In this document: in pieces, positions 7,519 to 60,235 of the stretch
How positions within the stretch are numbered: position 1 is the first letter of the stretch
Layout of the letters: each line of letters begins with the position of its first letter
DNA from: Turneriella sp.
Lineage (GTDB): Bacteria; Spirochaetota; Leptospiria; Turneriellales; Turneriellaceae
DNA length: 64,000 nucleotides
Assembly: GCA_046346875.1 (NCBI GenBank)
Contig: JAXMHG010000006.1
Span: 54,478 to 118,477 of the forward strand
Reading direction: 5' to 3'
The notes under the pieces: generated by a model
Database searches by the model: none
Seen by the model: only the letters and a program-made list of their open reading frames with translations
What the model was told of the DNA's origin: nothing
Program-made: the position numbers and the translations under genes

Positions 7519-7567
7519 ATGCTGTACTATCGGCATATTCGCCCTCGTTGCCTTGGCATTTCCCACT

Positions 7568-8925: not shown

Positions 8926-9451
8926 ATCGGAGTTTCACGCGTTACCCGAAGGCGGTCGCGAAATTTACCTGCAGCCGGGCGACTGGTTTTGGGGTGAGAA
9001 CCGTGTGCGTATAAAAACCCTGCTCGGCTCGTGTGTGGCGATCTGTGTCTGGCACCCACGCCTCAAAGTGGGAGGTATGTCGCATTGCCTGTTGCCATCA
9101 CGTGGCCTGCTGGTGCCGAAGGGGTATGAAGCAGACTACGTTGAAGACAGCGAACTCAGCGGTCGTTATGTCGATGAAGTCCTTGAGATTTTTTTCCGCG
9201 AGATGCTGCGTGCCGGCACGCGCCCGCAGGATTTCGTCGTGAAGGTTTTTGGCGGCGGCAAAATGTTCGAGTTCGTCGATAAGACCGGTATTACGGTCGG
9301 TGAACGCAACCTGCAGATGATGCGTGCAATTCTCGCGCGTGAAGGTATGGCAATTGCGGCGCAGCACGTGGGCGGAACCGGTCACCGCCATGTCATTTTC
9401 GAACTCTGGAACGGTGACTGCTGGGTACGCCACGAGGAGCTGCCGCAGTGA
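8912..9451 (+). CDS. cheD: Chemoreceptor glutamine deamidase CheD
   Basis: IKTLLGSCVAIC, GGMSHCLLP, VKVFGGGKMF, VGGTGHR. Confidence 0.93.
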   Translation: MRRNRSEFHALPEGGREIYLQPGDWFWGENRVRIKTLLGSCVAICVWHPRLKVGGMSHCLLPSRGLLVPKGYEADYVEDSELSGRYVDEVLEIFFREMLRAGTRPQDFVVKVFGGGKMFEFVDKTGITVGERNLQMMRAILAREGMAIAAQHVGGTGHRHVIFELWNGDCWVRHEELPQ

Positions 9452-14633: not shown

Positions 14634-14699
14634 CGGCCAGCAGCGCACAATTGCTGCGCGCTATTCGTTGTGGCATGAGTTTTGCTGCAGCGGGGCAGG

Positions 14700-24400: not shown

Positions 24401-25038
24401 CGGGCGGCGCGCTGTTCAGTAAATTTGGCAAGCAATACAATACGGGTGAAATTCTTTTCTGCGAGTTTGAGCCGGGTAACAGTTTTTACCTGATCCAGAC
24501 TGGTCGCGTGAAGATCTCCAAGGTTGTTAAAGATAAAGAAAAGACGATGGATATTCTCGGGGTAGGTGACATTTTCGGTGAGATGGCCATTCTCGAAGAA
24601 CAGCCGCGATCAGCCACGGCGACAGCCATTGAACCCGTTACAGTCCTGCATTTTGACCGGGACAACTTTGTCTCGATGATGATGAGCCAGCCGCAGCTGG
24701 CTTTTAAGCTACTGGTGGTATTCTCCAAGCGTATTTATGACGCCAAGCGGCGCCTCATGATACTGCTGCTCGACGACATCCAGTCGAAAATAGCCGACGT
24801 TTTTCTGATGCTCGCAGAGAAAGAGCCGACGTATGCCAGCATGCGCGAAGTGTCTTTTCCCGTAACTGTAGACGATGTCGCCAACTGGGCAGGGGTGAGC
24901 GCCGACCAGGTTTCAGAGCAGCTCAACCACTGGGCTAAAATCGGCAAGGTGGAGCTTTACAGCGACCGTATTTTTGTCCGCAACCTTGTGGATTTCAAGC
25001 GAATCGTAGCACAGAAGCGTAAGACAGAAAAAAGATAA
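24397..25038 (+). CDS. Crp/Fnr-family transcriptional regulator
   Basis: GDIFGEMAILEEQPRSATA phosphate-binding cassette, C-terminal winged HTH; ATGA overlap. Confidence 0.9.
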   Translation: MTGGALFSKFGKQYNTGEILFCEFEPGNSFYLIQTGRVKISKVVKDKEKTMDILGVGDIFGEMAILEEQPRSATATAIEPVTVLHFDRDNFVSMMMSQPQLAFKLLVVFSKRIYDAKRRLMILLLDDIQSKIADVFLMLAEKEPTYASMREVSFPVTVDDVANWAGVSADQVSEQLNHWAKIGKVELYSDRIFVRNLVDFKRIVAQKRKTEKR

Positions 25039-34724: not shown

Positions 34725-37700
34725 ATGTCTTCCGTCTGGCCAGAAAACGAACAGGCGCGTCTCGAGGCCCTGCGCAGTTACCAGATTCTCGATACGCTGC
34801 CTGAAGCCAGTTTTGACAGGCTCACCCGGCTTGCCTCGGCCATCTGCGGCGTACCGATTGCGCTTGTCAGTCTGATTGACACTGAACGGCAGTGGTTCAA
34901 GTCACGCGTGGGGCTTGATGCAGCAGAAACCGCTCGCAGCATTTCATTCTGCCAGCATGCGATTCTCGGTACAGGAATCATGGAGGTCGAAGATGCGACG
35001 CGGGACGACCGATTTCGCGCGAACCCCCTCGTTACGGAAGATCCCGAAATCCGCTTTTATGCCGGCGCCCCACTGATTGATCCGGATGGTTTTGCGCTCG
35101 GCACGCTCTGTGTCATTGACCGGCAACCCCGCAGCCTGACCCAGGAGCAGCGCACAGCCCTGAGAGACCTCGCCGATGAGGTGATGGAGCATTTGCGAGT
35201 TCGCAAAGAACGCGACCGGTACCGGCATACGGGGTTCAGGCTCACTTCGATCATCGAAGGCACAAACGTTGGCACATGGGAATGGAATGTCCAAACCGGA
35301 GAGACAGTTTTCAATGAGCGGTGGGCAGAGATTATCGGGTATCAGCTTTCAGACCTTGCCCCGATCAATATAGACACCTGGCTCCGGTTTGCGCACCCTG
35401 AAGATCTTGCTGAGAGTTCAAAACAGCTCGATCTGCATTTCAATGGAAAAGCGTCTTTCTATGAATGTGAATCGCGTATGCGTCACCGCGACGGTCACTG
35501 GGTGTGGGTGCTCGACCGCGGTAAAGTTTTCAGCCGTACAGAAGATGGCAAACCACTCTGGATGTACGGAACGCATCAGGATATTACCGAACGCAAGGCT
35601 GTTGAAAAAGCCCTCGCTGATAGCAAGGCGCGTTATGCTTCAATTGTTGCAGCGCTACCCGATTTGGTTTTCCTCTTCGATGCTGAGGGGCGCTACCTCG
35701 ATTGTCATGCTGGCGATCATACACGGTTCTGGATGCCACCCGAGAAGTTTATCGGCAGGCTGATTAACGAAACTATGCCGCCTGATTTTGCCGCACTCTC
35801 GATGGCGAAACTGAACCAGGCGCTGGCTTCTCGTTCTCTGATTACTTATAAGTATGATAGTCGTAATCCAGTCAGTGGTGAAATCGAGTATTTTGAGGCG
35901 CGTATGGTGCCGACAGCGCAGAATCAAGTGCTTTGCGTTATCCGTGATATGTCCACTGAAACGCGGCAGAACCAAAAGTTGGCGCATGCGCAACAGTTGC
36001 TCACACTCACAGGCCGCGTAGCGAGACTAGGTGCATGGGAATACAGGCCTGACTCGGGGGAGTTTCTGCTTTCTGAGGTAGCGCGTGAGATACTTGACAT
36101 TCCGCCGGATTCGACTTTTACATTGCACAGTGCATTAGAGCGTTTCATTCAGTCATCTGACCGAGAGTTCATGCTGAATAATCTGAACGCAGCCATACAG
36201 ACGGGCAGGCCATTTGAGGCGGAGATAGTTCTGAAGAATTTTCACAGAGAATCATTCTGGGCCAAAATCAAAGCAGCCACCACCTTTCTGGAAGGTGTCT
36301 GCGTGAGCGTCTACGGCGTCTTGCAGGATATCGATTCTGCCAAAAAAATACAGCTTGAGCTGGCCGCAGTGAGTTCACGGTTGCAGAGTATTTTTGACGA
36401 GATGACAGACGTTGTCTGGTCGGCGAGCTTGCCCGATTATACGACAACTTTTGTTACGCCGTCGATAGAACAGATGTTTGGCTATTCGCCCGACGAGTGG
36501 CTCAGCGGCCGTGATATGACGCGCAAGACCATACATGAAGCCGACCTGCCTCGGCTTGTCGAGATGTTAGATGAGCTGGAGAAATATTCTCAATCTGAAA
36601 AAACGTATCGAATTGTCACTAAAGACGGACGCATCAAATGGATCAGGAACAGGGTAAAGCAGGTCTGCGATGAAAATGGGGTGCCGATACGGTTGGATGG
36701 ATATGTATCTGATGTAACCGAATTGCAGGCAAACATAGACGACTTGAGGCATGCGCAATTTCTCGCCGAGAGAGCGAATCTTGCCAAATCAGAATTTCTC
36801 TCGAGTATGAGTCACGAACTGCGCACCCCGCTGAATTCTATTCTGGGTTTTAGCCAGCTGCTCGAACTCAACTCGGCAAATCATTTGGATAATGAAGAAT
36901 TGGATCAGATTACCCATATCAGAAAGGCAGGTTCTCACCTGCTTAATTTAATCAATGACATACTGGATCTTTCGAGAATTGAAAGCGGCACCATAGCGCT
37001 TACTGAAGAAGTTGTAGAGGTGGGACAACTTATATCCGATGTTATGGCTTTCCTTCGGCCTGTGGCCGTTGCCAGACAGGTTACATTCAAACAGTACCAT
37101 CATACTGAAACTTATGTAAAGGCCGATCGCCTGCGCTTGAAGCAGGTACTGCTGAACCTGATTTCGAATGCTATCAAGTACAATCGGGAGCGAGGATGGG
37201 TTGCCATAGAGGTGGATGCTCAGCATCGGGATAATATTCAGGTTAATGTTAAAGATTCCGGATATGGGATTGAGGCAGAAAAGTTGTCACTGCTTTTCCA
37301 GCCTTTCCAGCGTCTGGGTGCAGAACGGTCGCAGATTGAAGGTACAGGCATCGGCCTGGTCATCGTGCGTCGTCTGGTTGAGCTGATGTCAGGACGCGTA
37401 ACTGTAAGCAGTGTTCCGGGAGAGGGGAGTGTATTTTCACTGGAGATACCCCGGGCTGAAAGGCCGTCTCAGCCAAAGCAGACAATCAAGACCGATGGTG
37501 GCGGCTTGCAGCAGATAGCACAGGCTACGGTGCTTTACGTTGAAGACAACGCAGACAACCGCTTTCTGATGGAACGCTTTTTTTCGCGTATACCTGGAAT
37601 CCGGTTGTTATTGACAGAAACCGGAAGATCAGGAATTGAAATTGCCGCTGCGGAAAACCCCAATCTTATTTTGCTGGATATCCACCTGCCCGAATTGGAC

Positions 37701-37907
37701 GGCTATCAGGTGCTCAACGCATTGAGGCAGAGTAAGGAAACTGCAAAAATACCGGTTGTGGCAGTCTCTGCCGCAGCCAACGAGCAGGATATCAGGAAGG
37801 GGCTGGCGGCCGGTTTTGATGATTATCTGACGAAGCCATTAAATTTGGATATTCTGACGGAGGTCGTTCTGAAATTCTGCAAAGCGCGCGGTGGCGGCCA
37901 GGGATGA
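34725..37907 (+). CDS. Cytoplasmic hybrid histidine kinase: GAF - multiple PAS - HisKA - HATPase - REC
   Basis: GAF (IRFYAGAPL), PAS/PAC repeats, H-box SMSHELRTPLNSI, GTGIGL, REC ILLDIHLPELDG. Confidence 0.92.
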   Translation: MSSVWPENEQARLEALRSYQILDTLPEASFDRLTRLASAICGVPIALVSLIDTERQWFKSRVGLDAAETARSISFCQHAILGTGIMEVEDATRDDRFRANPLVTEDPEIRFYAGAPLIDPDGFALGTLCVIDRQPRSLTQEQRTALRDLADEVMEHLRVRKERDRYRHTGFRLTSIIEGTNVGTWEWNVQTGETVFNERWAEIIGYQLSDLAPINIDTWLRFAHPEDLAESSKQLDLHFNGKASFYECESRMRHRDGHWVWVLDRGKVFSRTEDGKPLWMYGTHQDITERKAVEKALADSKARYASIVAALPDLVFLFDAEGRYLDCHAGDHTRFWMPPEKFIGRLINETMPPDFAALSMAKLNQALASRSLITYKYDSRNPVSGEIEYFEARMVPTAQNQVLCVIRDMSTETRQNQKLAHAQQLLTLTGRVARLGAWEYRPDSGEFLLSEVAREILDIPPDSTFTLHSALERFIQSSDREFMLNNLNAAIQTGRPFEAEIVLKNFHRESFWAKIKAATTFLEGVCVSVYGVLQDIDSAKKIQLELAAVSSRLQSIFDEMTDVVWSASLPDYTTTFVTPSIEQMFGYSPDEWLSGRDMTRKTIHEADLPRLVEMLDELEKYSQSEKTYRIVTKDGRIKWIRNRVKQVCDENGVPIRLDGYVSDVTELQANIDDLRHAQFLAERANLAKSEFLSSMSHELRTPLNSILGFSQLLELNSANHLDNEELDQITHIRKAGSHLLNLINDILDLSRIESGTIALTEEVVEVGQLISDVMAFLRPVAVARQVTFKQYHHTETYVKADRLRLKQVLLNLISNAIKYNRERGWVAIEVDAQHRDNIQVNVKDSGYGIEAEKLSLLFQPFQRLGAERSQIEGTGIGLVIVRRLVELMSGRVTVSSVPGEGSVFSLEIPRAERPSQPKQTIKTDGGGLQQIAQATVLYVEDNADNRFLMERFFSRIPGIRLLLTETGRSGIEIAAAENPNLILLDIHLPELDGYQVLNALRQSKETAKIPVVAVSAAANEQDIRKGLAAGFDDYLTKPLNLDILTEVVLKFCKARGGGQG

Positions 37908-37941
37908 AAAACCTGGTTGAATGGAGTTCTGTCAGGCCCGC

Positions 37942-39042
37942 TCAGGCGATTGTTTCGTGAAGCATTTCGGGGAAATAGATTTCTACCTTCTGAGATTTGC
38001 CCCTAACACTGCTTTCCCTCAGTTTTTTGCATTCTAACTGCGAGCCAAGCAGGTGGCGTGTTTCGCTGTCGATCAGCATGTCAACACCTGCACGTTTCGT
38101 GAGTGTCTCCAGTCGCGCGCATAGATTGACCGGATCACCCAGGATCGTATACTCGACCCGGTGTACATTGCCTATATTCCCGGCAAAAACTTCACCGGTA
38201 GCGATGCCAATGCCGTAGTGAATAGTCTCACCGAATTCACTGGCGATAAAATCGTTGTACAATCTGAAATGTTCGCGTATTTTCATTGCACAGGTGATTG
38301 CGTTGCGGGTTGCGTGCGGTGAATAGCTCCTCAGTCCAAAAGTCACGAGAAAGCCGTCACCGGTGTACTTGTTTATTGTGCCACCATTAGAGAAAATCAG
38401 ATCGGACAGATCTGAGAAAAGTTCACTGAGAAAGACAAAAAAACGCTGGGGTCCAAGGCGCTCTGCCAGGGTCGTTGAACCACGAAGATCAAACATCATA
38501 AAAGTTCCGCGCACGATGTGACCTCCCGGTTCGGTGGAAATCGTGCCATCCAGAATCGCGGCAATAAGGTCACGCGAAAAATATTTGCTTAACTTGCGGA
38601 GGTCATCCTGCGCCTTATACTGAAGATTGTTTACCGTTTTCCGGTAATTCTGCATTGCCAGCAGTGCTTTGACCCTGAGGCGGAATTCGGCATGAACAAA
38701 AGGTTTGCGTAGCAAATCATTCGCTCCGAGTTCAAGTGCCTGTACCGCCGACTGGTGGTCGTCGTCGCCCGTGACGATTAATATATCCGGGTGCCGCTCG
38801 TGCTGCCTGTTACAGATTTTGGCCAGAATTTCCAGTCCGGACATATCCGGTAGATTGAGATCGAGCACTATAAGATCGGGCTGCCATGACTCGAGTTGTT
38901 TTAGTCCCTGCATGCCGTCATGTGCGACACGGACTACACAGCCGAGGCTCTCAAGCAGCGCCTGCTCAATCTTCGCTGTGGTCGGTTCATCTTCAATCAA
39001 CAATACACTCGATGTAATGGAGGCGGGTGCTTGAATTTCCAT
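37942..39042 (-). CDS. Response regulator REC - class III adenylate cyclase
   Basis: LLIEDE, VLDLNLPDMSG; FDLRGST, NKYTGDG, YTILGDPVNLCARLE. Confidence 0.9.
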   Translation of the reverse strand: MEIQAPASITSSVLLIEDEPTTAKIEQALLESLGCVVRVAHDGMQGLKQLESWQPDLIVLDLNLPDMSGLEILAKICNRQHERHPDILIVTGDDDHQSAVQALELGANDLLRKPFVHAEFRLRVKALLAMQNYRKTVNNLQYKAQDDLRKLSKYFSRDLIAAILDGTISTEPGGHIVRGTFMMFDLRGSTTLAERLGPQRFFVFLSELFSDLSDLIFSNGGTINKYTGDGFLVTFGLRSYSPHATRNAITCAMKIREHFRLYNDFIASEFGETIHYGIGIATGEVFAGNIGNVHRVEYTILGDPVNLCARLETLTKRAGVDMLIDSETRHLLGSQLECKKLRESSVRGKSQKVEIYFPEMLHETIA

Positions 39043-39106
39043 TGGGCATTTCCTCAGGAGTCTGCCAACCGGGTTACCGCGGCGGAGCGCTGTCGTGGCC
39101 GTGCCA

Positions 39107-39712
39107 TTATATCCACCGGTTATTTTTGGCTACCGCAACCGCCTCGGCTGTTGTGCTCGCTTTGAGAATTTCCTTGATATTGCGCTTGTGATAGTCTACG
39201 GTGACATCACGAATTCCCAATGCCTCTGCGATTTCTTTGGTTTTCTGCCCCTGTGCGATGAGTCTGAGCACATTGAGCTGTGCTGCGGTCAGAGGTAAGG
39301 CCAGGCTGCCGGGTGAAGGTTTAAATTCTGGAAAAATATTCACTCCATTGACGATCGCGAGCACGCTGTCGCGTACCCTGGAGAATTGCTCTTGCTTTGA
39401 GATAAATCCGTTAAAGCCCAGTCGTTTGCACCGCAAAACGGTATAATCGTCTGAGTCGGCGGTATAGGCAATAAAAATAACATATGGGTATTTTTGCCTA
39501 AGGTGCCCAAAGTCGCGCTCGAGATTCATTTTAGGCATATTGAGATCAAAAAGGACGGCATCGGGCTGGTGCTGTTCGATCGCGGCACTGGTTTGCCGGT
39601 AATCCGTGCAAGCAAAAACCAGGGCAGTTTCTTCAGCTTCAAACAGAGCGGAGAGGCCTTCGACAATTACCGGGTGATCGTCGACAATCAATAACGAAAG
39701 TGAATTTGGCAT
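39107..39712 (-). CDS. NarL/FixJ (LuxR-HTH) response regulator
   Basis: LIVDDHPVIVEG, LFDLNMP, LTAAQLNVLRLIAQG...TVDYHKRNI; start moved to ATG 39712. Confidence 0.9.
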   Translation of the reverse strand: MPNSLSLLIVDDHPVIVEGLSALFEAEETALVFACTDYRQTSAAIEQHQPDAVLFDLNMPKMNLERDFGHLRQKYPYVIFIAYTADSDDYTVLRCKRLGFNGFISKQEQFSRVRDSVLAIVNGVNIFPEFKPSPGSLALPLTAAQLNVLRLIAQGQKTKEIAEALGIRDVTVDYHKRNIKEILKASTTAEAVAVAKNNRWI

Positions 39713-39810
39713 AAAATTTGCAAGCGAGGTGCGGGGCAGCCATTGCTGACAGTAGGACATTCAAGCTATAGCCGAAATGTACACTAGAATTCGTATTCCT
39801 ACCGATTAAA

Positions 39811-39849
39811 ACTCGGGAAATCTGTAGTGTGACTATGGTTTTCTTTAGT
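39811..39849. promoter_or_regulatory. Tandem palindromic operator pair 1 (7-4-7, spacer 3)
   Basis: ACTCGGG-AAAT-CTGTAGT gtg ACTATGG-TTTT-CTTTAGT. Confidence 0.65.
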
Positions 39850-39976
39850 TTTTGTCATCCATGCTATTTTCATTGATGAGAGCTTATTGTAGTATACATT
39901 AGCGTCGAACCGACCGTTAGCTTAATAGGCTCGTTCCTCCCGCCGGATATACCTCTGGCTAAAATTCGTCTCGCGG

Positions 39977-40015
39977 CCTGCAGAATACTGTAGTTGAACT
40001 CAGGTTTTCCTTAGT
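39977..40015. promoter_or_regulatory. Tandem palindromic operator pair 2 (7-4-7, spacer 3)
   Basis: CCTGCAG-AATA-CTGTAGT tga ACTCAGG-TTTT-CCTTAGT. Confidence 0.65.
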
Positions 40016-40116
40016 CTGAACTATTATTTGTCTTTTCGCTCTTTAACCTCAGCAGGATTGTTTTGTTCATCAAGTACGCTTTCGCACGTAGTGCCAAGCG
40101 CGAACTGATTTGGAGA

Positions 40117-42105
40117 ATGGAGAACGTGTTTAAGTTCATTGAAAGCATTGGGGCCTTGCCAGACGATTCGCCGGGATTAAGGTTGCAGAAGCGGTTTCTT
40201 GTCTACCTGGGATCTGCAATGAGCCTCGGGGGAATTCTCTGGGGATCTTTGTGTCTTTATTTCGGTCTCACCCTGCCGGCGGTGATTCCGTACGGTTATG
40301 TCGTGCTGACTGTCCTCAACTTGTCTGCTTTTGCCGTTTTCAAAAATTTCGCACTCGCACGATTCTTTCAGGTGCTCATCAGTTTGGCGCTCCCTTTCAT
40401 GTTTCAATTCGCCCTGGGTAGTTTTGCGTCTACCGGGGCCATCATGCTCTGGGCCCTGATTTCGCTCGTGGGTGCATTTACATTTGAGTCGCTCAAAAAC
40501 ACCATCTATTGGCTGGGGCTTTATATCGCCCTGACGATTGCCATGGGGATCTATGATTCGCAGTCTCTGGCACAGATGTCGGTTGCCAAAGAGGTAAGCA
40601 CACTCTTCTTTGTTCTGAACATTACTGTAATATCTACCATCGTCGCCGGGTTGTCTTACTACCTGCTCAAGAGCAGAGGGCGGCTTCTCGAAGAACTCGC
40701 CGAAGCCAAGCGAGAGACCGACGCCGTTATGGCGTCTGTCGATGAAGGGCTGTTTCTGCTTACACTTGCCGGTGATGACTATATTGTGGGCGCGGAGCAA
40801 TCTGCCGCAACAAGCAGGTTGTTTGGCGGCAACAAGCTGCCAGCCACAGAATTCTCCCGCGCATTGGAGACCTTCCTGAGCCCGCACAAAACCCAGGAAC
40901 TGCAAAATTTCCTTAAGCTGCTCAGATCAGGAAAGCTAAAGCCTTCCATGATCATGACGCTAAACCCTTTAGACCAGGTGCCAATTAGTATGGGCGCGCT
41001 GACCGATGTAAAGTTTCTCCGTTTTGGCTTCTCGCAGGTGCAGTCAGGCAGGAACGATCAGTATTTGGTTAGAATTTCTGATATCACCGAAGAAAAGAAA
41101 CTGCGGGAACAGCTCGAAGAGACAGAGCGAAAAAACGCCAACCACACGCAGATGATTCTCTCTGTGCTTCACGTTGGGCCTTCGATGCTGAGGGACTTTC
41201 TCTCTGGTACGGAGTCAGAACTCAAAATCATTATGGACATTCTGCAGAGCGACCATACGCCGGAGCAGGTTGCCGCCCGCCTGGAAGAGCTCTATCGCTC
41301 AGCACACTCGATTAAGGGCAATGCGTCGTTACTGGACCTGGGTATTATTGTCAGTTCTACTCATGATCTTGAAGAAAAAATCCAGGCATTGCGCGAGAAA
41401 CCAGAACTCCGCTGGGATGACTTTTTGCCTGTTGCTACCGAAGTCGCGAATTTGCAGGAGACGCTTGCAGGTTTGCATGGTTTGTTGGGGCGCATTGAGA
41501 GTTTTCGCGAAGAAGATAATGCAGTCATGCGGTCCGCTGTGTCCGGTATACCGCGGGTAGTTTCCGACATGGTAGGGCGCCTGGCGCAGCAGGTCGGTAA
41601 GCGCGTGCAGATTGAAGCCTCTGGCTTTGATCAGGTTGAAATCCCCTATCGGCATGCGTATTTCCTGCGCGACGTTGTTGTACAACTAGCTCGAAATGCC
41701 GTGGCGCACGGAATCGAGCATCCCGAAAAGCGCAAGCAGTCAGGCAAAGCAGAACACGGCAATATTGCTATCGGGTTGGCGAAAAAAGGTGAAATGATCG
41801 AGCTGCGCGTGTACGACGACGGAGCTTCGTTTGATCTGGAGGCAATTCGTCGCAGCGCCGCAAGGCGTCGAAACGCCCCTGAGAATGTGGCATCTGACTG
41901 GACGGCCAAAGAACTGGTGAAGTTTATTTTTGAGCCGGGATTCTCTACTGCGGAAGATGTCACGACTACCGCAGGCCGGGGGATGGGCATGGATATTATA
42001 CGCCAACGGGTGCGCCAGATGGGTGGTGATCTGCGGATAAATTACGCACCGGGGTCGTTTACCGAGTTCACAATTACCATGCCCGTTGAAGTGGCGCCGG
42101 CATAA
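40117..42105 (+). CDS. Membrane-integrated CheA-like (class III) histidine kinase: multi-TM sensor - PAS-like - Hpt - HATPase, no CheW domain
   Basis: About 6 TM helices; LYRSAHSIKGNA (Hpt); QLARNAVAHGIE, DDG, FEPGFSTAEDV...GRGMGMD; protein ends after the HATPase. Confidence 0.88.
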   Translation: MENVFKFIESIGALPDDSPGLRLQKRFLVYLGSAMSLGGILWGSLCLYFGLTLPAVIPYGYVVLTVLNLSAFAVFKNFALARFFQVLISLALPFMFQFALGSFASTGAIMLWALISLVGAFTFESLKNTIYWLGLYIALTIAMGIYDSQSLAQMSVAKEVSTLFFVLNITVISTIVAGLSYYLLKSRGRLLEELAEAKRETDAVMASVDEGLFLLTLAGDDYIVGAEQSAATSRLFGGNKLPATEFSRALETFLSPHKTQELQNFLKLLRSGKLKPSMIMTLNPLDQVPISMGALTDVKFLRFGFSQVQSGRNDQYLVRISDITEEKKLREQLEETERKNANHTQMILSVLHVGPSMLRDFLSGTESELKIIMDILQSDHTPEQVAARLEELYRSAHSIKGNASLLDLGIIVSSTHDLEEKIQALREKPELRWDDFLPVATEVANLQETLAGLHGLLGRIESFREEDNAVMRSAVSGIPRVVSDMVGRLAQQVGKRVQIEASGFDQVEIPYRHAYFLRDVVVQLARNAVAHGIEHPEKRKQSGKAEHGNIAIGLAKKGEMIELRVYDDGASFDLEAIRRSAARRRNAPENVASDWTAKELVKFIFEPGFSTAEDVTTTAGRGMGMDIIRQRVRQMGGDLRINYAPGSFTEFTITMPVEVAPA

Positions 42106-42132
42106 GAATTCTATATTTTTAAAGGAGAAGAA

Positions 42133-42495
42133 ATGAAGATATTGATTGCAGACGATTCGATGATGGTGCGCAGGATACTGGAAAAATTCGCCCAGAAACT
42201 AAATCTGGAGATAGTCGGTACCGCCGGCAACGGTAAAGAGGCAGTCCGTCTATTTGGTGAGTTAAAGCCTGATCTTGTCTCGTTGGATATAACAATGCCC
42301 GAAATGGATGGCCTTTCCGCCATGAAGCAGATACTTGCTATAAAACCTGATGCCAAAGTGGTCATTATCTCCGCTGTAAACAGCAAAGATATGATTGTTC
42401 AGGCTTTGAACGGCGGCGCGAAAGCGTACGTGGTTAAACCATTCGATGAAGCTAAAATTGTAGAGACCTTCAACGAAGTTATCAATTCAAATTGA
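42133..42495 (+). CDS. cheY: Single-domain response regulator (CheY-like)
   Basis: ILIADDS, VSLDITMPEMDG, YVVKPF. Confidence 0.9.
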   Translation: MKILIADDSMMVRRILEKFAQKLNLEIVGTAGNGKEAVRLFGELKPDLVSLDITMPEMDGLSAMKQILAIKPDAKVVIISAVNSKDMIVQALNGGAKAYVVKPFDEAKIVETFNEVINSN

Positions 42496-42504
42496 GGTGG
42501 AAAA

Positions 42505-42951
42505 ATGAAAGAAGCAGAACTAAAAATATTCGTTGAAGGTGTCTCAAATTTTTTTGGCAGATTGGGTGGAACGAGCATCCAGGTGGGTGTTCCGTATATT
42601 AAGGAAGGAAATCAGTTCATAAGTGATATGACTGGAATTATCGGCCTTACAGGTAAACGTAAAGGAGGCATTTTCATAACCTGCACGACAAGCATGGTAG
42701 ACGATGTCATAGCACAGTACACGGGAATGGCCGATACGTCGCCAGAGGCGCGTAAAGATATGATTGGTGAAATCGCTAACACAATTTCGGGAAATGCGTC
42801 CGATGCTTTTGGCGTCGATTTTCAAATTAGCGTGCCTGTAGTCATTACCGGCAAGCCCGAAGGTGTCGATATGCCAACCCGCGTCCCAACCTACGTAATT
42901 CCGCTGCATTGGGGTGAACACAAAGCATACCTTGTTGTTGGCGTTGAGTAG
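42505..42951 (+). CDS. cheX: CheY-P phosphatase CheX
   Basis: GIIGLTG, DMIGEIANTISGNA (ExxN), ISVPVVITG. Confidence 0.9.
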   Translation: MKEAELKIFVEGVSNFFGRLGGTSIQVGVPYIKEGNQFISDMTGIIGLTGKRKGGIFITCTTSMVDDVIAQYTGMADTSPEARKDMIGEIANTISGNASDAFGVDFQISVPVVITGKPEGVDMPTRVPTYVIPLHWGEHKAYLVVGVE

Positions 42952-43062
42952 AGCTTTCCCTGACTCTCTTTAAGCCGACCTGTATGCCGATTCTTTTTCA
43001 AACGACAGCAGTAAAGCCAGCTTGCTTTTCAGTTTTCTACGTATGATGCCAGGCCGGTTGAG

Positions 43063-44856
43063 ATGGACCTGAGGACACTCTACTTCGCACTGAGCGTGAT
43101 AGCATTATCAGGCCTGTTTTTGTCCTTTACGGCGATCACACGAGCAGAGAAAAAAGGGATATACTGGAACATGGGGGCTTTCAGTCTCTGTGTTGGCACT
43201 CTGCTCCTGGGGCTTAGGGGTGTGGTACCTAATGTCCTGTCGATTCAGCTCGGCAATGTGCTGATGCTCACGGTAGCGCCACTGATTGAAACCAGTATCC
43301 GTCAGTACCTGCTGCGAAGGACTATTTCCCTGTCGATGCTAATCGTTTCTGCCGCAGCCATTCTCATTTTTGCAGCGACTGCGCATGCGGCTCCTCTGGC
43401 TCTCAGGGTTCGCATTGTGAGTATTGCTTTTGCGATGCAGTGCTTGATTATCGCCTGGCACCTCCTGCAGCTGCCGAAGGCCCTGCGTTCCAGATCTACA
43501 TACCTATTCTTAATTGCATTTGGTGTACTCGGCATTCTCTCTGCCCTGCGCGCAATCCTGGCTGATGCTTACGTCGACGAGCGCGACATGTTTGCCCTGA
43601 AAGGGTTCACAATGTACTATTTAGCTGCTTCGATAGGATTCGTCATGATTATACTGAACGGTTACGGGTTGCTCGTTGGCGACCAGAACATCCGTGAGTT
43701 GGAGAAACTCAAATCTTCAGCCGAGTCTGCCAATAAGGCAAAGTCCCAGTTTCTCGCAAATATTAGTCACGAAATTCGGACACCGCTGAATGCTATTGTA
43801 GGCCTTTCGGATGTACTGCTGTCAGCGCCTGGTGAGAGTGGCATGTCGCATCACGTAAGAACAATACGGGCGAGCGCAATGCATCAGTTGGATCTGGTCA
43901 ACGAAATTCTCGATTTCGCCAAGCTTGAAGCAGGTAAATTCGAGATAGATCCTCACCCGGTCAGGTTGGGTGAATTCCTCACGGAAATTTCCGGTATGGT
44001 CCGCCCCATGGCCGCAGCAAAAGGAATAGGCTTTCTCGAAGAGTATGAGTCTGATTTGCCCGCGCTCGTCATAATGGATTCAAACCGGTTAAGACAGGTA
44101 ATTCTGAACCTGCTGAATAATGCTGTTAAGTTTACAAATACTGGCCTGGTTGCGCTGCGGGTCGATATACCGCGGAGATTTCACGCGTCTGTGCTTCTGA
44201 CTTTCAGCGTTATCGATACCGGCATAGGCATCGATCCGGTATCGACGGAAAAGCTCTTCGACGCATTTGAACAGATTGACGGGTCAATTTCGCGACGATT
44301 TGGAGGAACGGGGCTGGGGTTGGCTATTAGCCGTCGGATTATCAGGCTGATGGGCAGTGAGATTGAAGTGGAATCAGAGAAGAATTTTGGTGCTCGCTTC
44401 TTTTTTACGATTAAAGCAGCGTTGGCCGATTTGTCTGAAACGAATAGCCACCGGTTTGAGACTTCGTTCGACCCTGGTCGCCGCATATTACAAAAGGCAA
44501 AAATACTTGTTGCGGAGGATAATGAAGTCAACCGGGAAGTAATCCGTGCAATGCTGGATCGCATAGGGCTCACAGCTTCATTTGTAGAAAATGGCCAGCA
44601 GGCTGTAGAAGCCGCTGTCACAAACAGGTATGACCTGGTGCTCATGGATCTGCAGATGCCAGAGGTGGATGGCCTGACTGCAACTCGCCTCATGCGTGAG
44701 CGCGGTATCCGCTGCATTATCGTTGCGATGACCGCCAACACGGCTGAAAGTGATCGTGCTGATTGTATTGCGGCAGGCATGGACGATTTTCTCGGTAAGC
44801 CCGTGACCCTCAATGCTCTGTTCGAGACCTTGCTGAAACATTTGCGGCCCGCTTGA
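43063..44856 (+). CDS. Membrane (about 7 TM) hybrid histidine kinase with REC
   Basis: [38 protein letters not shown]. Confidence 0.9.
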
Positions 44857-44929
44857 TGGCTTAAGCCTGTTCAATGCCTGGGACAATTCGCTTGCCAACC
44901 GCAGGCACGGTGCGAGGGTTGCCTCAGGC

Positions 44930-46264
44930 ATGACCGACGAAATCTGGAAGTTTATCTCAAGCGCCAACGAAGCTGATTTGCAGGCGGAGCTTATCCGTTA
45001 CGTCTCGCTTTTCCAGATCAATGAAGTGCTCTCCTCGACACTTGAATATGACGAAGTCTTGCGGCTGGTATTGCAGGAAATGCGCACGCTTTCGGGCGCC
45101 GAAATTGCCTCTATCTTCCTTATCAATAAGAAAGACCAGGTGCTGGAATTCGCCGCTACAACCGACGAAAAAGCAGATTTGCTCAAGAACATCCGTGTGC
45201 CGCTCGGTAAGGGAATTTCCGGGTATGTTGCGCAAACCGGCGAGTACGTAAACCAGAGCGATATACAGAGTGATACGCGCTATTATAGAGAAGTAGATGT
45301 AACACGGGGCGGGGAGACCAAGTCGTATCTTTGCGTGCCGCTGAAACTGCGCGGCGAGATTAAAGGCACGGTGCAGCTCATGAACAAAGCGGGCGGGCAC
45401 CCGTTCAGCGACGCAGATGTCAGGCTGATGCTGAATTTCTCCAGCCAGGCGGCAATGGCGATTGAGACTTCGCTCCTGCACCGCGAAGCCCTTACCAAAA
45501 AGGCGTTTGAGCGTGATGTGCATCTTGCAGCAGACATACAGCGACAGTCTCTGCCGAATACGATGCCGCAGGTGCCGGGCTATTCTCTGTTTGGGCATAC
45601 CGAACCTGCGCAGGATGTCGGTGGTGACTACTTCCAGTTTATTAATCACGTCGACCGCACGGGTAACAATAAACTCGATATCATCGTTGCCGATGTAGCC
45701 GGAAAGGGAATTCCCGCATCGCTCATCGTTTCGAATTTTCATGCAGCGCTGCAGCTGCTTTCACCACTCTACGACACGCTGGGCGAACTTGCCTTCCAGC
45801 TGAATAACTTTATGCGGCAGAACCTGATTACTGGTACCTTTGTGACGGCATTCATAGCACGACTCGACGCCGCCACAGGTAGAATGCATTACGTCAGCTG
45901 CGGGCATAATCCCCCCTTTATCTTTCGCAAGGCTGACGGGCAGTATACGGCTGAGTTGCTGCAACAGAGCGGCACTGCCTTCGGGTTACGCTACGATATG
46001 GAATACCGGGTACACAGGTTGGATTTTAAGCCCGGCGAAACCCTTTTGATCTATTCCGATGGTATTACCGAAGCCATGGATCGGGAAAATGTGCAGTACG
46101 AAACCGATCGCATGAACGCAAGCGTGATTGCGACTCTGTCAAAGCAGGGTAGCGCAAATGTTGCCGAGCAGATAGTGGAGAACCTGCGCAAAGATGTTGA
46201 TCGTTTTCGCCAGGGTGCAGAAGTTAATGACGATCTTACAGTTGTTTGTCTGCAGAGGGAATGA
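44930..46264 (+). CDS. GAF - PP2C/SpoIIE phosphatase
   Basis: GAF (SYLCVPLKLRGEIKG), VGGDYF, DVAGKGIPASL, YSDGITE, NDDLT. Confidence 0.88.
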   Translation: MTDEIWKFISSANEADLQAELIRYVSLFQINEVLSSTLEYDEVLRLVLQEMRTLSGAEIASIFLINKKDQVLEFAATTDEKADLLKNIRVPLGKGISGYVAQTGEYVNQSDIQSDTRYYREVDVTRGGETKSYLCVPLKLRGEIKGTVQLMNKAGGHPFSDADVRLMLNFSSQAAMAIETSLLHREALTKKAFERDVHLAADIQRQSLPNTMPQVPGYSLFGHTEPAQDVGGDYFQFINHVDRTGNNKLDIIVADVAGKGIPASLIVSNFHAALQLLSPLYDTLGELAFQLNNFMRQNLITGTFVTAFIARLDAATGRMHYVSCGHNPPFIFRKADGQYTAELLQQSGTAFGLRYDMEYRVHRLDFKPGETLLIYSDGITEAMDRENVQYETDRMNASVIATLSKQGSANVAEQIVENLRKDVDRFRQGAEVNDDLTVVCLQRE

Positions 46265-47181
46265 GTCGAAAGCTTCAGCTCCTGTTTCTCTGCGCATTGA
46301 TTCTCTTGTTTGTTGGGCCGGTGTCCTCAATTGCCGGCAACGAATTGCCCGTCAGTAGTCCGTTTTTCAGACCTTACGAGGGTGATTTTTCCATCGAAAT
46401 GGGTGTCGGTTATAAGGCCCAGTCGAGCAGGTTGACGATTCCGGTGCTCGATTCGGCACGCGAAACGATGTCAAAAGAGGCCTCCACCGGCATTGCATTG
46501 AATTATGGTGTCACAGAATATTTTTCGATCGGTGTATCCGGAAAATTCATGGCCGATCAGGATTACAGTCTCATCCAATCGGGCCCTGCGTTTGCCGGAA
46601 ACCCGGGATCAAATTCGCGCAACCGGGGTTTTTACGATGCAGGTTTCCAGCTCGGCCTGAGAATGCTGGGCACGCGTACCGACGAATGGTTCGTCAACCT
46701 CGACATGGGTTTTCTGCCGGGACTTACCGATGCAAACAATTTCCTTTTTTCGTGGCCGCACAACCAGTATCTCGCCGGTATTACGCTGGGAAGAAATATT
46801 GAAGCATGGTCTTTCGGTATACTATCCGCAATGCAGTACTATGCCCCATCAGCCCTCGACAAGTCCGACGAGAAAAATAACCAGTTACTGAGCAACAGCC
46901 AGCTGTTTGTGCAGGTTGATTTCGCATCTCTGTATTTGCGCACGTCAGCAGGGGTTGTTAAGTTTCTCGATAGCCGGTCTAATGAAAATGCTCTCAAGAA
47001 AAAAATATTTCCGACCGGCCAGGTTGAGATGGGTTTCCCGTTTACCGATACCTGCGCATTGAGTGCGCGGCTGAGTTATGTTGCCGGAGCGCAGGGTGAG
47101 TTGACTGTTGCGGGCTTTAATGCATTTTTAGTCGCGCAACCCATCTGGATGGGCAGCGTGTCAGTGGTTGTGGCGTTCTAG
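46261..47181 (+). CDS. Outer membrane beta-barrel protein
   Basis: ATGA overlap with the upstream gene, signal peptide, amphipathic strands, terminal Phe. Confidence 0.75.
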   Translation: MSRKLQLLFLCALILLFVGPVSSIAGNELPVSSPFFRPYEGDFSIEMGVGYKAQSSRLTIPVLDSARETMSKEASTGIALNYGVTEYFSIGVSGKFMADQDYSLIQSGPAFAGNPGSNSRNRGFYDAGFQLGLRMLGTRTDEWFVNLDMGFLPGLTDANNFLFSWPHNQYLAGITLGRNIEAWSFGILSAMQYYAPSALDKSDEKNNQLLSNSQLFVQVDFASLYLRTSAGVVKFLDSRSNENALKKKIFPTGQVEMGFPFTDTCALSARLSYVAGAQGELTVAGFNAFLVAQPIWMGSVSVVVAF

Positions 47182-51526: not shown

Positions 51527-53554
51527 ATGAAGTCTCTGCTGGCGAACATGAAATTCCGCACCAAGATCAGGCTGACAGCCTTTCTGCTGCTGGTGCCGCT
51601 GGTATTCCTGGCAGTGCAGTTCTACTGGAAGAGCGCGGAGGACGTTCACGCTGCGCGCCTCGAGCGGCACGGCCTGCGTTATCTCGCTCCCATACAGACG
51701 GCAGTTTACCATTTGCAGCGGCGCCGGGGCTTTGTCGCCACCCAGGGTGCCGGGGGTATCGACAATTCAGCCAGCATCCGCACGGAAAGCGACGCGGTCC
51801 GCAAGGCTGTTACAGATTTTGATTCCAGCCATGCAGAACTGCGTGACCCATTAGGCATTGAAGGGGAGTGGACAGACATGAAAGCCAAGCTCACCTATCT
51901 CGCAGATCTGCCCGTTACCGGCGACCGCAACAAGCAGGTTGAACTCCACAACAGTACAGTGCTCGCGCTCTTTGCATTCGAGTCAGTAATTACTGAGCGT
52001 TCGGCGCTTGACCTGGATCCGGAAGCGGGAACCTACTACCTGATTGAACTGGCTACACGTACCTCAGGAGCGCTGAGCGAAGCGCTCGGCCAGGTGCGCT
52101 ACCGTGGTACGGTTATGCTGCAGGGGGGAGCGCGAACGATCGAGAACCTGGCCGCACTCGAAGCGCAACACGGCATTATCCAATTCCGGACAGCGCAGGT
52201 AGAGCAGGCGCGCTGGCGTGTGGCCAAGCATCTGCCAGACAGGAAAGCGGACCTCGATCGCCTCTTTGAAGCCCAGTCAAAAGCCGCAGAAAAATTTGAG
52301 GAGTATCATGGCCAGCTCATTTCAGGTAAAAACGCGGGCCAGGCGGCTGCGCAGCGGTATTCTGCCGTTACTACCGAGTACATCGACATTCTTGTACAGC
52401 TGGCGGCCAAGATCAACATTATCATTGGTGAAAACCTGACGAGCCGCATGCGGCTCGCGATCTTCAAACAGTGGTCCATTCTGATTCTTACACTGGCCGG
52501 CCTGGTTCTGTCAGGCCTGGCTGGTTGGCTAATCATGCGGCAGATTTCGGTCTCGCTGGAAAATGCGATGTCGGTATCGGATAGCCTCGCAACAGGAAAT
52601 CTCGACCAGAAGATTGAGAGCGAGACACAGGATGAAATAGGTGCCTTCATGCGTTCACTGCAGATAATGGCAGAACGGCTCAAGGGTGTGTTGCAGCAGG
52701 TGCACGACAGCTCGACAGAAATCTCCCTCGCTGCAAGCCAGGTGGCAAGCACGGCTGAAATGCTCAACAATGGTGCTATGGACCAGGCGGCTCACGTCGA
52801 AGAAACCGGTGCGGCTCTTGGGGAAATGGTTGGCCTGATACAGAGTAATGCGAAGAGTGCCATTGAAACAGACAAGGCCGCTTCCGGTGCACTCAACGTT
52901 ACCCAGATTGGCGCGGAAAACATCCGGGAAGCCGTAAACTCCATGAAAGAAATTTCTGAGCGTATACAGATCGTTCAGGAAATAGCTTCCCAGACAAACC
53001 TGCTCGCACTCAACGCGACGATCGAAGCAGCACGGGCAGGTGAGCACGGTCGTGGTTTTGCGGTCGTCGCAACCGAGGTCGGCAAACTCGCCGAAACGAG
53101 CGGGCAGGCAGCCAAACAAATACAGCAGCTCATTCGCGAAAGCTCAGCAATATCGGAAACCGCTGCTTCATCTATGGCTATGATTACGGCCAGCATGCAG
53201 GAGACGGCACAGCGTGTGCTCTCGATACGTCAGGCATCAGAAGAACAGAGCCAGGCAGCGAAGCAGATCAGCGAGAGTATGGGCCGCCTTAACCAGACGA
53301 CCGAGCAGACTGCCTCGGCTGCAGAAGAGCTCGCGGCGACTGCTGAAGAAATGAGCTCACAGACCGCCGCGTTGCTTGAGAACCTGAAATTTTTTCGCTT
53401 TGAATCGACTTCCGGTCGGGTTACGAGTAGCTACTCGGCAGCCAATACTATCCGGCAAATGGCACAAAAGAGCGGCGTCACGCCGCGGCAGAACGTGGGC
53501 TCTGCCGGCACTGAACCGCTGGTTATAAACCCTGGCTCGTACGAAAAATTCTGA
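51527..53554 (+). CDS. Methyl-accepting chemotaxis protein with a large helical periplasmic sensor, HAMP and C-terminal pentapeptide (SYEKF)
   Basis: Two TM helices, [33 protein letters not shown]. Confidence 0.95.
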
Positions 53555-58037: not shown

Positions 58038-58129
58038 ATAAAGATTTTGTGACGACCTCCTGCCCAGTCCATAATCCGTAGAACATGTTGCGCAGCCGTC
58101 TGCAGCGTAGAATCCTACCCGCAGATACC

Positions 58130-60223
58130 ATGCCCATAAAAATCCTGAGCCTGACCATCTCACTGTTTTTCGGGGCTGCAATATTTGCCGCGGAACCCGC
58201 GCAGCTGCAGGCCGCAGGCTGTCGAACTGCAGATTTTTTTCACGAATCCGATTCAGAAAAGCCTGTAAGCCAGCTTGGGCAGTACCGGCAGGTAGAGGCA
58301 TTTCCGGTGCTTCTTAATGCAATCTATCGCCCGGCCCGCGACGGCCGGCTTCTGCACTACAGCGTTGCCTGCGCCATCAGCCTGCCTGCCGGCGTGCGCA
58401 GCGACCACTACCTTTACCTGCCCGGTATCGGTGAGAACTTTGATATTTACCTGAACGGAAAAAAGATACACAGCGACATACACGTGGAAGGCGACAGGCT
58501 GCGGGTCTACCGCTATACCAAATATAGCAACGTGACTTTACCCGGTTCGCTGCTGCGCGAAGGCGAGAACACCCTTTTCTTTCACATTGCAGGCTATGCA
58601 CCCATCACGCCGCTATCACAGAATTTTTTACTTGGCTTACCATTCCGCAGCGGCTACACAGTTTCAGCCGAACGCGAGAGCGGTCCGGGCAGCCTGCTGC
58701 TCTTTTTTCTGACGGCATCGTACGTCTTTTTTGGGCTCTACCATTTTTTCTTTTACCTGCGCTGGCGCGAAAAAAAGTACAATCTGCATTTCGCGGTTTT
58801 TTCGCTCGCGATATCCGGATATTTTCTCGCTTTTTCCCAGGAAGCATTTGCGCGCGTTTCCGACACACGATATCTTATCATTGCCTCGTACGCGAGCCAG
58901 ATGCTCGCGCTTGGATTCTTTCTGCTCTATGTGCACAGCTTCTTCTTTGAGCGTAATCGTGTTCCGCTTTACCTGCGCGTCGCGGTGCTGGTCGACCTGG
59001 TACTTGCAGCGATGGTTGTCGCAGGGCGCGACACCTGGTACCAGTCGTTGCTGACTTTCTGGTATTTTACTGCGCTGCCGCAGATATTACTGGTCTTTTA
59101 TCTCATCGGGCGTGCCGTAAAGCTGAGATTGCCCGATGCCCGCACACTGGCAATCAGCATTGCGATTGCTCTCCTTATGATTGCCTTCGATATGCTGGAT
59201 ACGCTGATTTTTTATTCCAGCGTGAGGCTGAGCCAGTTTGCCTACTTTGTTGTTGTCGTTTCGCTCGTCTTGCTCATGGCAAATCGTTTTATCAATATTC
59301 ACCATGAAACCGATCGCCTGAACCAGCAGCTTTCGCACGAGAGAAATTCATTTTCGCGTTTCGTTCCTTCACAGTTTCTCGAAAACCTTGGCCGTACGAC
59401 GGCGGTGGAGATTCGCCGCGGCGACACCGCACAGCGGCAGATGGGTATTTTGTTCATGGATATCCGGAATTTTACGGGGATTGCTGAGAAACTTTCACCA
59501 GCTGAGAGCCTGGTCTTTCTCAATGTGTTCATGCGCAAGATGGAGCAGTGTATTAGCCAGAATGCCGGGTTTGTCGATAAGTACATTGGTGATGGCCTGC
59601 TGGCGCTCTTTGGATCCCGCGACGACAGCGCTGCTGATGGCGCTGTGCAGGCAGTCAAGGCATCCCGGCAGATGCTGCAGAGCCTGGATTTTCTAAATCG
59701 GTACAGCACCGATTTCGGCCATATCCGCGTCGGCATCGGTGTGCACTGCGGTTCGCTGGTGATGGGTACGCTCGGCAGCCGGCGTCGCCTCGATACCACC
59801 GTCATCGGCGACGCGGTAAATCTTGCCTCGCGTCTGGAAATGCTCACAACCCTTTATGGATTACCCATGCTGCTTTCAGGTGATGTCGAACAGTACCTGC
59901 CGCCAGAAATGCTGGCAGACGTACGGCGTATCGATACCGTCAGGGTTAAGGGTCGCAGGCAGCCGGTAACGGTATATGAAGATTTTTCGGCTGAAGCTCC
60001 CGATATCGCCGAGAAAAAGCGCCGCGGTAAAGTTGAGTACGATGAAGCATTTGCTGCCTATGCGAGGGGCGATTTCGCCCAGGCAGTGCGGCAGTTTGAT
60101 GCCATTAACAGCGGTTTTACCTATGATAGTGCTGCTCAAACCCTTTCGCGCCGTGCCCGGAAACTACTGGAGCACGGGGCACCCCTGAACTGGGATGGGA
60201 TTTTGCCACTTGGGAAAAAATAG
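58130..60223 (+). CDS. 7TM-DISM-like membrane sensor class III adenylate cyclase
   Basis: Signal peptide, extracellular beta domain, about 7 TM, LFMDIRNFT, VDKYIGDG, TTVIGDAVNLASRLE. Confidence 0.88.
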   Translation: MPIKILSLTISLFFGAAIFAAEPAQLQAAGCRTADFFHESDSEKPVSQLGQYRQVEAFPVLLNAIYRPARDGRLLHYSVACAISLPAGVRSDHYLYLPGIGENFDIYLNGKKIHSDIHVEGDRLRVYRYTKYSNVTLPGSLLREGENTLFFHIAGYAPITPLSQNFLLGLPFRSGYTVSAERESGPGSLLLFFLTASYVFFGLYHFFFYLRWREKKYNLHFAVFSLAISGYFLAFSQEAFARVSDTRYLIIASYASQMLALGFFLLYVHSFFFERNRVPLYLRVAVLVDLVLAAMVVAGRDTWYQSLLTFWYFTALPQILLVFYLIGRAVKLRLPDARTLAISIAIALLMIAFDMLDTLIFYSSVRLSQFAYFVVVVSLVLLMANRFINIHHETDRLNQQLSHERNSFSRFVPSQFLENLGRTTAVEIRRGDTAQRQMGILFMDIRNFTGIAEKLSPAESLVFLNVFMRKMEQCISQNAGFVDKYIGDGLLALFGSRDDSAADGAVQAVKASRQMLQSLDFLNRYSTDFGHIRVGIGVHCGSLVMGTLGSRRRLDTTVIGDAVNLASRLEMLTTLYGLPMLLSGDVEQYLPPEMLADVRRIDTVRVKGRRQPVTVYEDFSAEAPDIAEKKRRGKVEYDEAFAAYARGDFAQAVRQFDAINSGFTYDSAAQTLSRRARKLLEHGAPLNWDGILPLGKK

Positions 60224-60235
60224 CAAAGGAATACC

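Follow-up and report, generated by a model that had tools for sequence, protein, structure and literature searches.

Class III histidine kinases (HKIII) reportedly combine built-in sensors with a histidine phosphotransfer (Hpt) domain and a CheA-like ATPase, have no dimerisation domain, and are encoded in clusters that are said to include a single-domain response regulator of their own together with a CheX phosphatase (Adebali et al. 2017, J Bacteriol). We analysed a locus of this kind in Turneriella sp., at positions 40117-42951 of a 64-kb stretch of contig JAXMHG010000006.1 (hereafter the window). It encodes a membrane-bound kinase, a CheY and a CheX. The locus shares with the class as reported the built-in sensor, the Hpt domain joined to a CheA-like ATPase, the missing dimerisation domain, and the regulator and CheX beside the kinase gene; by its sequence, it matches an HKIII of the type already described by comparative genomics. 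It differs in that its cluster holds no soluble chemoreceptor gene, its sensor is a six-transmembrane (6-TM) module covered by no Pfam or NCBIfam model, and the neighbourhoods of the locus and its relatives point to a cyclase, a PP2C phosphatase and a LuxR-type regulator rather than to pili. The system is a further case of a known kind, and the motor bias that an earlier sequence-only reading attached to it was inferred. What we add is the sensor module, for which Pfam and NCBIfam have no model, a core of helix, PAS-like domain, Hpt and catalytic P4 domain, and the recurrent cyclase, PP2C and LuxR partners.

The second close comparator is CheA, whose core domains are Hpt, H-kinase_dim, HATPase_c and CheW (Berry et al. 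2023, PMC10782961). Our kinase resembles CheA in an Hpt domain with an HSIKG motif, in a homologous P4 and in having CheY and a phosphatase of the CheC/CheX family as partners. It differs from CheA in that it has neither CheW/P5 nor a P3 hairpin, and in that it carries its own membrane sensor and a PAS-like domain. With a probability of roughly 60%, we read the locus as a stand-alone HKIII pathway rather than as receptor-array chemotaxis, with an Hpt domain that also serves local receiver (REC) domains as the likeliest, though less certain, output.

Three same-strand open reading frames (ORFs), whose coordinates we checked, fill the locus, and a divergent intergenic region precedes them:

40117..42105, plus strand: HKIII-type sensor kinase, 662 amino acids (aa) from the ATG (ORF, Pfam, NCBIfam, structural model, Foldseek)
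42133..42495, plus strand: cheY, single-domain response regulator, 120 aa (Pfam, PDB matches, residues read)
42505..42951, plus strand: cheX phosphatase, 148 aa (PF13690, PDB matches to the CheX family, residues read)
39761..40116, no strand: divergent intergenic region, 356 bp, in which the promoters are presumed to lie

As the sequence-only reading had it, cheY and cheX follow the kinase gene directly, with gaps of 27 bp (kinase to cheY) and 9 bp (cheY to cheX); the next gene begins 111 bp beyond cheX. Alternative starts for the kinase are GTG 40126 and TTG 40063, the latter upstream of ATG 40117, and copies of the protein in databases are 659, 662 or 680 aa long. Consensus scans for promoters and terminators gave no excess over shuffled expectation. 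The sequence of the locus is present in activated-sludge and wastewater metagenomes.

We modelled the kinase with AlphaFold from a 17-sequence family alignment (mean pLDDT 77.6) and divide the chain as follows:

40117..40671, plus strand, aa 1-185: N-terminal 6-TM sensor (AlphaFold2 models; as a domain family the module spans 40117-40731)
40672..40737, plus strand, aa 186-207: juxtamembrane signalling helix (model; alignment columns)
40738..41085, plus strand, aa 208-323: PAS-like alpha/beta domain (DSSP topology; weak PAS_4 matches in relatives)
41176..41520, plus strand, aa 354-468: Hpt four-helix bundle (Pfam Hpt; invariant residues)
41527..42096, plus strand, aa 471-660: CheA-type P4 catalytic domain (NCBIfam, hhalign, Foldseek, motifs read)

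The model has six TM helices (19-48, 52-75, 78-100, 106-117, 126-149 and 158-185), the last of which is prolonged as one helix up to residue 207. The PAS-like domain (211-322), a long helix (324-353), the Hpt bundle (355-468) and P4 (478-656) then follow in order, and there the chain ends. Residues L194, K198, E200, T201 and D202 of the signalling helix are invariant in the family alignment. By DSSP the PAS-like domain of the model runs two strands, four helices, three strands, and Pfam PAS_4 matched weakly in 2 of the 17 relatives. Pfam recognises an Hpt domain over aa 357-447 (E 1.8e-6) and a HATPase_c domain over aa 521-658 (E 1.2e-14), whereas the NCBIfam CheA models cover aa 471-660 only, a stretch that in the models is P4 (E 2.3e-42 and 1.4e-35; the next-ranked NCBIfam kinase model scores 1e-6). 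A Foldseek search with the model returned CheA P4 structures as top matches (TM-score 0.85-0.89, normalised to the target) and, lower in rank, whole-chain alignments to PAS/LOV histidine kinases. The sequence-only reading of the chain as a multi-TM sensor, a PAS-like region, Hpt and a CheA-type ATPase that stops where P5 would begin is borne out by Pfam, NCBIfam and AlphaFold taken together.

The putative phospho-acceptor is His397 (CAC codon, 41305-41307), within the motif RSAHSIKGNAS, and R394, H397, K400, G401, N402 and A403 of the Hpt domain are invariant in the family. The P4 motifs are intact: an N box (RNAVAHGIE), a G1 box (DDG) and a G2 box (GRGMGMD), with R526, N527, H531, G532 and E534 invariant in the first, D567-D568-G569 in the second, and G620, R621 and G624 in the third.

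Absence of P5 and P3 is what separates this kinase from CheA. The sequence-only reading had seen no CheW domain, and a hidden Markov model scan agreed: CheW (PF01584), H-kinase_dim (PF02895) and HisKA gave no match in the kinase or in any of the 17 family members, even at E<=1. In the survey of Berry et al. 2023 (PMC10782961), HMMER recognised CheW in 100% of CheA sequences. When the kinase was aligned with eight canonical CheAs in hhalign, residues 431-659 paired with the last P3 helix and P4 (probability 99.9, E 2.9e-33, 30% identity), and the alignment ended three residues short of the kinase C-terminus, leaving nothing to pair with P5. As a positive control, P5 and P3 segments of canonical CheA were used as queries on the ORFs of 70 loci, about 40 of them HKIII-type, obtained by scanning species-representative genomes. 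Both domains were recovered from the canonical CheA loci (L042-L057 and L062), where genes for methyl-accepting chemotaxis proteins (MCPs), CheR, CheB and CheD lie nearby, and neither was detected in any HKIII-type locus. Moreover, every full-length relative, whatever its phylum and even at 26% identity, has its C-terminus 2-10 residues past P4.

For P3 a caveat applies, in that the kinase helix 431-465 aligns with P3 helix 2 of CheA. Berry et al. 2023 (PMC10782961) warn that HMMER frequently overlooks P3, so the case for its absence is mainly one of space: about 10-25 residues separate the last Hpt helix from P4, versus ~60 for a P3 hairpin.

These results bear on where the protein is best filed. 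Two of the four CheA core domains, P3 and CheW/P5, are missing and a sensor foreign to CheA is present, so the kinase should not be filed as CheA. Nor is it a class I histidine kinase, whose acceptor histidine lies in a HisKA/DHp domain, since no HisKA-clan match was found. It does have an Hpt phospho-acceptor domain with a CheA-like catalytic domain, sensor domains (6-TM and PAS-like) in the same chain, no HisKA/DHp, no complete P3 hairpin, and a single-domain regulator and CheX in its gene cluster. One frequent, non-obligatory trait of the class, an unorthodox soluble chemoreceptor close by, is absent: there is no MCP gene in the operon, and none is adjacent in the related loci. The class III assignment of the sequence-only reading, which went by a CheA-like kinase with its own sensor and no P5, fits the reported definition.

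The two small proteins are also well preserved. CheY matches Pfam Response_reg (3.8e-28) and conserves D7, D8, D52 (the putative acceptor), S80, Y99 and K102. Its best PDB matches are chemotaxis CheYs: 6er7 (4.5e-34), Thermotoga maritima 1tmy (3.7e-32) and Borrelia burgdorferi CheY3 3hzh (2.6e-19). In a crude neighbour-joining tree, which carries no support values, the HKIII-linked CheYs fall in one clade, apart from the CheA-linked CheYs of the control loci; T. maritima CheY is closer to this clade than E. coli CheY is. CheX matches PF13690 at 1.5e-17, and its active-site motif, D85-x3-E89-x2-N92 with P111 further on, aligns with 3h4y and 3hm4 (GE(I/V)xN). In spirochaete chemotaxis, CheX is the phosphatase of phosphorylated CheY (CheY-P). 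The pairing of an E-x2-N phosphatase of the CheX family with CheY recalls B. burgdorferi CheX-CheY3 (PDB 3hzh) and Thermotoga CheX. However, those phosphatases act on CheY from array-bound CheA and control the flagellar motor, and our CheX matches two uncharacterised CheX-like proteins, 3h4y and 3hm4 (E about 1e-14), better than it matches 3hzh_B (E 0.0023). Because the catalytic residues are intact in each, the kinase, CheY and CheX all look catalytically competent.

The nearest relative, 98% identical, is in Spirochaetota bacterium isolate Betzabe_MAG127 (L001), followed by Leptospiraceae and other Spirochaetota metagenome-assembled genomes (MAGs). HKIII-type matches begin at about aa 192, in the juxtamembrane helix (K198, E200, T201 and D202 invariant), and end where P4 ends. 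It is because the matches start there that we define the conserved HKIII core as helix, PAS-like domain, Hpt and P4, with a variable sensor in front. Indeed, related cores carry Amt, HAMP with periplasmic domains, PilJ-type, dCache, Reg_prop, PAS and 7TMR-DISM sensors. The loci come from Spirochaetota (including Leptospira alstonii, Leptonemataceae and Oceanispirochaeta), Campylobacterota, Gallionellaceae, Calditrichota, Verrucomicrobiota, Eremiobacterota and Bacteroidota (Reichenbachiella).

We clustered all ORFs of 44 HKIII loci without prior labels. The kinase family was recovered in 39 of the 44, the CheY family in 29 and the CheX family in 26, and the triad is ordered either HK-Y-X or Y-X-HK. 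Four further families recurred: a class III cyclase (10/44), a PP2C phosphatase (9/44), a REC-LuxR regulator (7/44) and a hybrid kinase (6/44). No flagellar, pilus, MCP or CheW family was recurrent near HKIII in these loci.

All seven 6TM-HKIII loci whose sequence reaches upstream have a divergent REC-LuxR gene there, and within this subfamily the regulator has diverged (44-58% identity) about as much as the kinase. We regard it as a conserved companion of the 6TM-HKIII that may be a second phosphoacceptor. The "minimal three-protein circuit" of the sequence-only reading is probably too narrow a description, given that the 6TM subfamily always has the divergent REC-LuxR gene as well. The cyclase gene is directly 3' of the HKIII gene in L007, L009 (REC-cyclase), L010, L013, L014, L038 and L039, often with overlapping stop and start codons, and sits inside the HKIII operon in L071. 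The PP2C gene is translationally coupled to HKIII in L019, L020, L025 and L030, and in Oceanispirochaeta and L030 it is CBS-PP2C genes that are coupled to Amt-HKIII genes.

Around our locus the window holds members of these families:

39107..39760, minus strand: REC-LuxR (GerE) response regulator, divergent from the kinase (Pfam)
37942..39042, minus strand: REC-class III adenylate cyclase, candidate output (Pfam)
43063..44856, plus strand: TM-HisKA-HATPase-REC hybrid kinase without Hpt, which could feed the HKIII Hpt (Pfam)
34725-37907: second HisKA-HATPase-REC hybrid kinase without Hpt (Pfam)
44930..46264, plus strand: GAF-PP2C (SpoIIE-type) phosphatase, candidate output (Pfam)

The REC-cyclase carries the Lys/Asp pair that specifies adenine and the metal-binding Asp residues, as read from its sequence. 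Its catalytic domain is 40-47% identical to the HKIII-adjacent cyclases versus 31% to the other cyclase of the window, which places it by sequence in the HKIII-adjacent subfamily. A separate observation concerns the GAF-PP2C: in L003 and L004 it retains 85-87% identity where the HKIII kinases retain only 50-52%, a much stronger constraint than that on its neighbours.

The sensor is the least familiar part of the chain. The sequence-only reading had left its family to be identified by HMM; that search was run, and no Pfam or NCBIfam model matches the 6-TM module. Both of its termini are predicted to be cytoplasmic (positive-inside pattern). Modelled separately, the module reaches pLDDT 80.8 and pTM 0.74, and comparison of this model with PDB folds gave no significant match (best E 1.8). 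It is nevertheless widespread: a search with the first 205 residues hit 1275 representatives of protein clusters built at 50% identity (E<=1e-3; 697 of them at E<=1e-10), at the N-terminus every time. Of 72 full-length carriers, 54-56 run into HisKA-HATPase, 31 of those with a receiver; the other outputs are PP2C (7), Hpt (7), an MCP signalling domain (3), cyclase (2) and a Ser/Thr kinase (1). The module has the motif PFxFQxxLGGFxxSGxVMLWA and an invariant intramembrane set of polar and aromatic residues (W42, Q85, P93, G101, W112 and N168 in the window protein). Since its loops in the model are only 3-8 residues long and invariant polar and aromatic residues lie within the membrane, the signal is probably sensed inside the membrane. 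The MASE and 7TMR-DISM modules are similarly N-terminal and multi-TM, with almost no periplasmic loops and many output types; unlike them, the 6-TM module is without a Pfam or NCBIfam match and a PDB match, and has a motif of its own. The downstream hybrid kinase was considered as a second carrier of the module and rejected, as the two TM regions are unrelated.

We propose the following mechanism. An intramembrane signal would pass through the juxtamembrane helix and the PAS-like core to the ATPase, which would phosphorylate His397 of the adjoining Hpt domain. With so short an Hpt-P4 linker, this reaction could take place within a single chain. Hpt would hand the phosphoryl group on to Asp52 of CheY, and CheX (E89/N92) would quickly dephosphorylate CheY, giving a fast-resetting signal that needs no methylation-based adaptation. 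Hpt would most likely also serve local receivers, namely the divergent REC-LuxR and/or the REC-adenylate cyclase, with CheY and CheX providing either a diffusible effector or a sink for phosphate by which the kinetics are set. The module would then control transcription and cAMP, instead of or besides motility. Such a branched output, from Hpt to CheY plus REC-LuxR and/or REC-cyclase with CheX setting the kinetics, is in our view the most likely one, a choice we make with modest confidence from sequence comparisons.

Several points weigh against a stand-alone pathway with local outputs. In L001 and L074 the synteny with the window reaches the aconitase and MCP genes, so the conservation of neighbours in close relatives is partly plain genome synteny. 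With five cyclase and PP2C genes in 64 kb, proximity within the window means little by itself, and the cyclase association comes from a few lineages only. CheY is most similar in sequence to motor-binding CheYs, and one relative, L078, has cheY-cheX behind flaA genes. The searchable literature yielded no experimental work on any HKIII. Furthermore, two wastewater RNA runs gave zero reads across 37900-46400, which leaves the operon a predicted one.

Four other explanations have to be weighed. The sequence-only reading held that this CheY biases the periplasmic flagellar motors: CheY-P would bind the flagellar switch (FliM/FliY) and bypass receptor arrays. The top PDB matches of CheY are indeed genuine chemotaxis CheYs, its Tyr99 and Lys102 are the equivalents of E. 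coli Y106 and K109, CheX is the CheY-P phosphatase of spirochaete chemotaxis (3hzh being the CheX-CheY3 complex), and the genome is a Spirochaetota MAG with MCP, CheR, CheB and CheD genes. In L078 (1824-4831), flaA-flaA-cheY-cheX lie on one strand, with cheY 275 bp 3' of flaA and convergent with the HKIII gene, yet this is the only flagellar link among the related loci, and no flagellar gene family recurs near HKIII in the 44. Moreover, HKIII-linked CheYs form a clade apart from the sampled CheA-linked ones, and the triad is present in Reichenbachiella, a member of the Bacteroidota, a phylum not known to have flagella. A flagellar-motor output is neither supported nor refuted by these data; we think it unlikely but a live rival.

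The module could instead be a node in a phosphorelay, its Hpt fed mainly by the REC domains of the Hpt-less hybrid kinases at 43063-44856 and 34725-37907, with the fused ATPase as one input of several. This would be compatible with the stand-alone HKIII pathway that we prefer. Two HisKA-HATPase-REC hybrids without Hpt flank the locus and a hybrid kinase recurs in six loci, but its position and orientation differ between them. In L071 the 6TM-PAS-Hpt part has been kept in several samples despite a half-lost ATPase, tightly behind a hybrid kinase and a REC gene. Since the ATPase motifs are invariant in the family, however, we argue for self-phosphorylation as the main route, and we regard a relay fed chiefly by hybrid kinases as doubtful.

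All genomes with HKIII reportedly have pilT, and Adebali et al. 2017 are reported to propose that the module modulates motility based on type IV pili. A citing paper (PMC6501615) restates this second-hand, saying that such kinases occur where the genome lacks chemotaxis genes and that a pilus marker gene is present every time, although its use of "type III" may conflate two classifications. Some HKIII sensors do have a PilJ-type N-terminal domain (L036 and L023). The published argument is co-occurrence alone, however, and we found no pil gene in the 64-kb window and no recurrent pil family in the 44 neighbourhoods. A pilus output seems to us quite improbable.

That the kinase is a truncated or decaying CheA which still uses CheW and MCPs in trans is scarcely credible, and a pseudogene was rejected: P4 is clearly CheA-like and the genome has MCP, CheR and CheB, but the end point past P4 is kept across phyla, the kinase has its own TM sensor, and a CheW domain is present in 100% of surveyed CheAs (PMC10782961).

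Some relatives show arrangements that deserve mention in their own right. Amt domains are fused to the HKIII core in L009 (8669-11404), L019 (8648-11401), L020 and L025, and a REC-cyclase or CBS-PP2C follows. A kinase core without a dimerisation domain may suit Amt proteins, because these are trimers. The ammonium sensor kinase Ks-Amt5 is likewise an Amt transporter-kinase fusion; it was rejected as an HKIII-type fusion because it carries a classical DHp+CA kinase (PMC5764959), whereas the four relatives carry Hpt and a CheA-type core, and the window kinase itself is without an Amt domain. At L071 (10001-12539) a 6TM-PAS-Hpt protein stops midway in the ATPase, and the next gene opens with a receiver tail before its cyclase part. 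The arrangement resembles the product of a deletion that spanned an ancestral HKIII/REC-cyclase boundary; being seen on six contigs, it is not an assembly error. In two Calditrichota loci, L033 (7756-11386) and L044 (1731-4959), cheR-cheB-cheY precede a REC-fused HKIII-like kinase without P5, and methylation enzymes thus adjoin a receptor-less kinase. In Campylobacterota and Gallionellaceae a family-2 glycosyltransferase and a secreted START-domain protein recur by HKIII operons (L007, L008, L010, L014 and L039; for example L014:12063-13205 and L010:7094-7681).

The wider window bears on one more statement of the sequence-only reading, that MCP, CheR and CheB are absent. This is true of the operon and not of the window, which has a cheR-cheD-cheB cluster at 8098-10056 and, as the nearest MCP gene, one for a HAMP-MCP at 51527-53554, 8.6 kb away and past the aconitase gene. 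Within the module itself, as stated there, genes for receptor coupling or methylation-based adaptation are missing. No CheW or CheA was seen in the 64-kb window. The CheB of the 8098-10056 cluster is a methylesterase domain alone, with no receiver, and no MCP, CheA or CheW gene stands alongside. The ORF at 7334-8101, which overlaps cheR from upstream, was considered as a hidden CheW and rejected; Pfam gives no match for it, and its sequence resembles that of a small secreted protein. The window is also unusually dense in signalling genes: it encodes several hybrid kinases, three phosphatases of the PP2C type, two cyclases, a pair of GGDEF-EAL proteins of which one has MASE1, and two proteins that bind cyclic nucleotides, one of them a Crp-like regulator; such genes lie at 1951-3516, 10883-13066, 14682-16502, 23234-25038 and 58085-63571.

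A broader proposal can be put forward tentatively, as a possibility. HKIII-CheY-CheX modules would serve as fast-resetting front ends for second-messenger and partner-switching outputs rather than for motility, with a core that, having lost its dimerisation domain, may be joined to any sensor, trimeric Amt transporters among them, and, in the 6-TM module, a new and widespread intramembrane sensor. The outputs may be (REC-)adenylate cyclases of one dedicated subfamily and PP2C phosphatases, to which the 6TM subfamily would add the LuxR-type regulator.

To our knowledge, HKIII have been described only by comparative genomics, and this locus is a clean, compact example with its catalytic residues intact. 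Neighbourhoods across phyla name concrete candidate outputs for it: a REC-adenylate cyclase, a REC-LuxR regulator and a PP2C phosphatase. The 6-TM module, which feeds many output types and has no Pfam or NCBIfam model, merits definition as a domain family. If it is true that a CheA-derived kinase works without dimerising and without arrays, the system would show how the parts of chemotaxis have been reused as ordinary two-component signalling.

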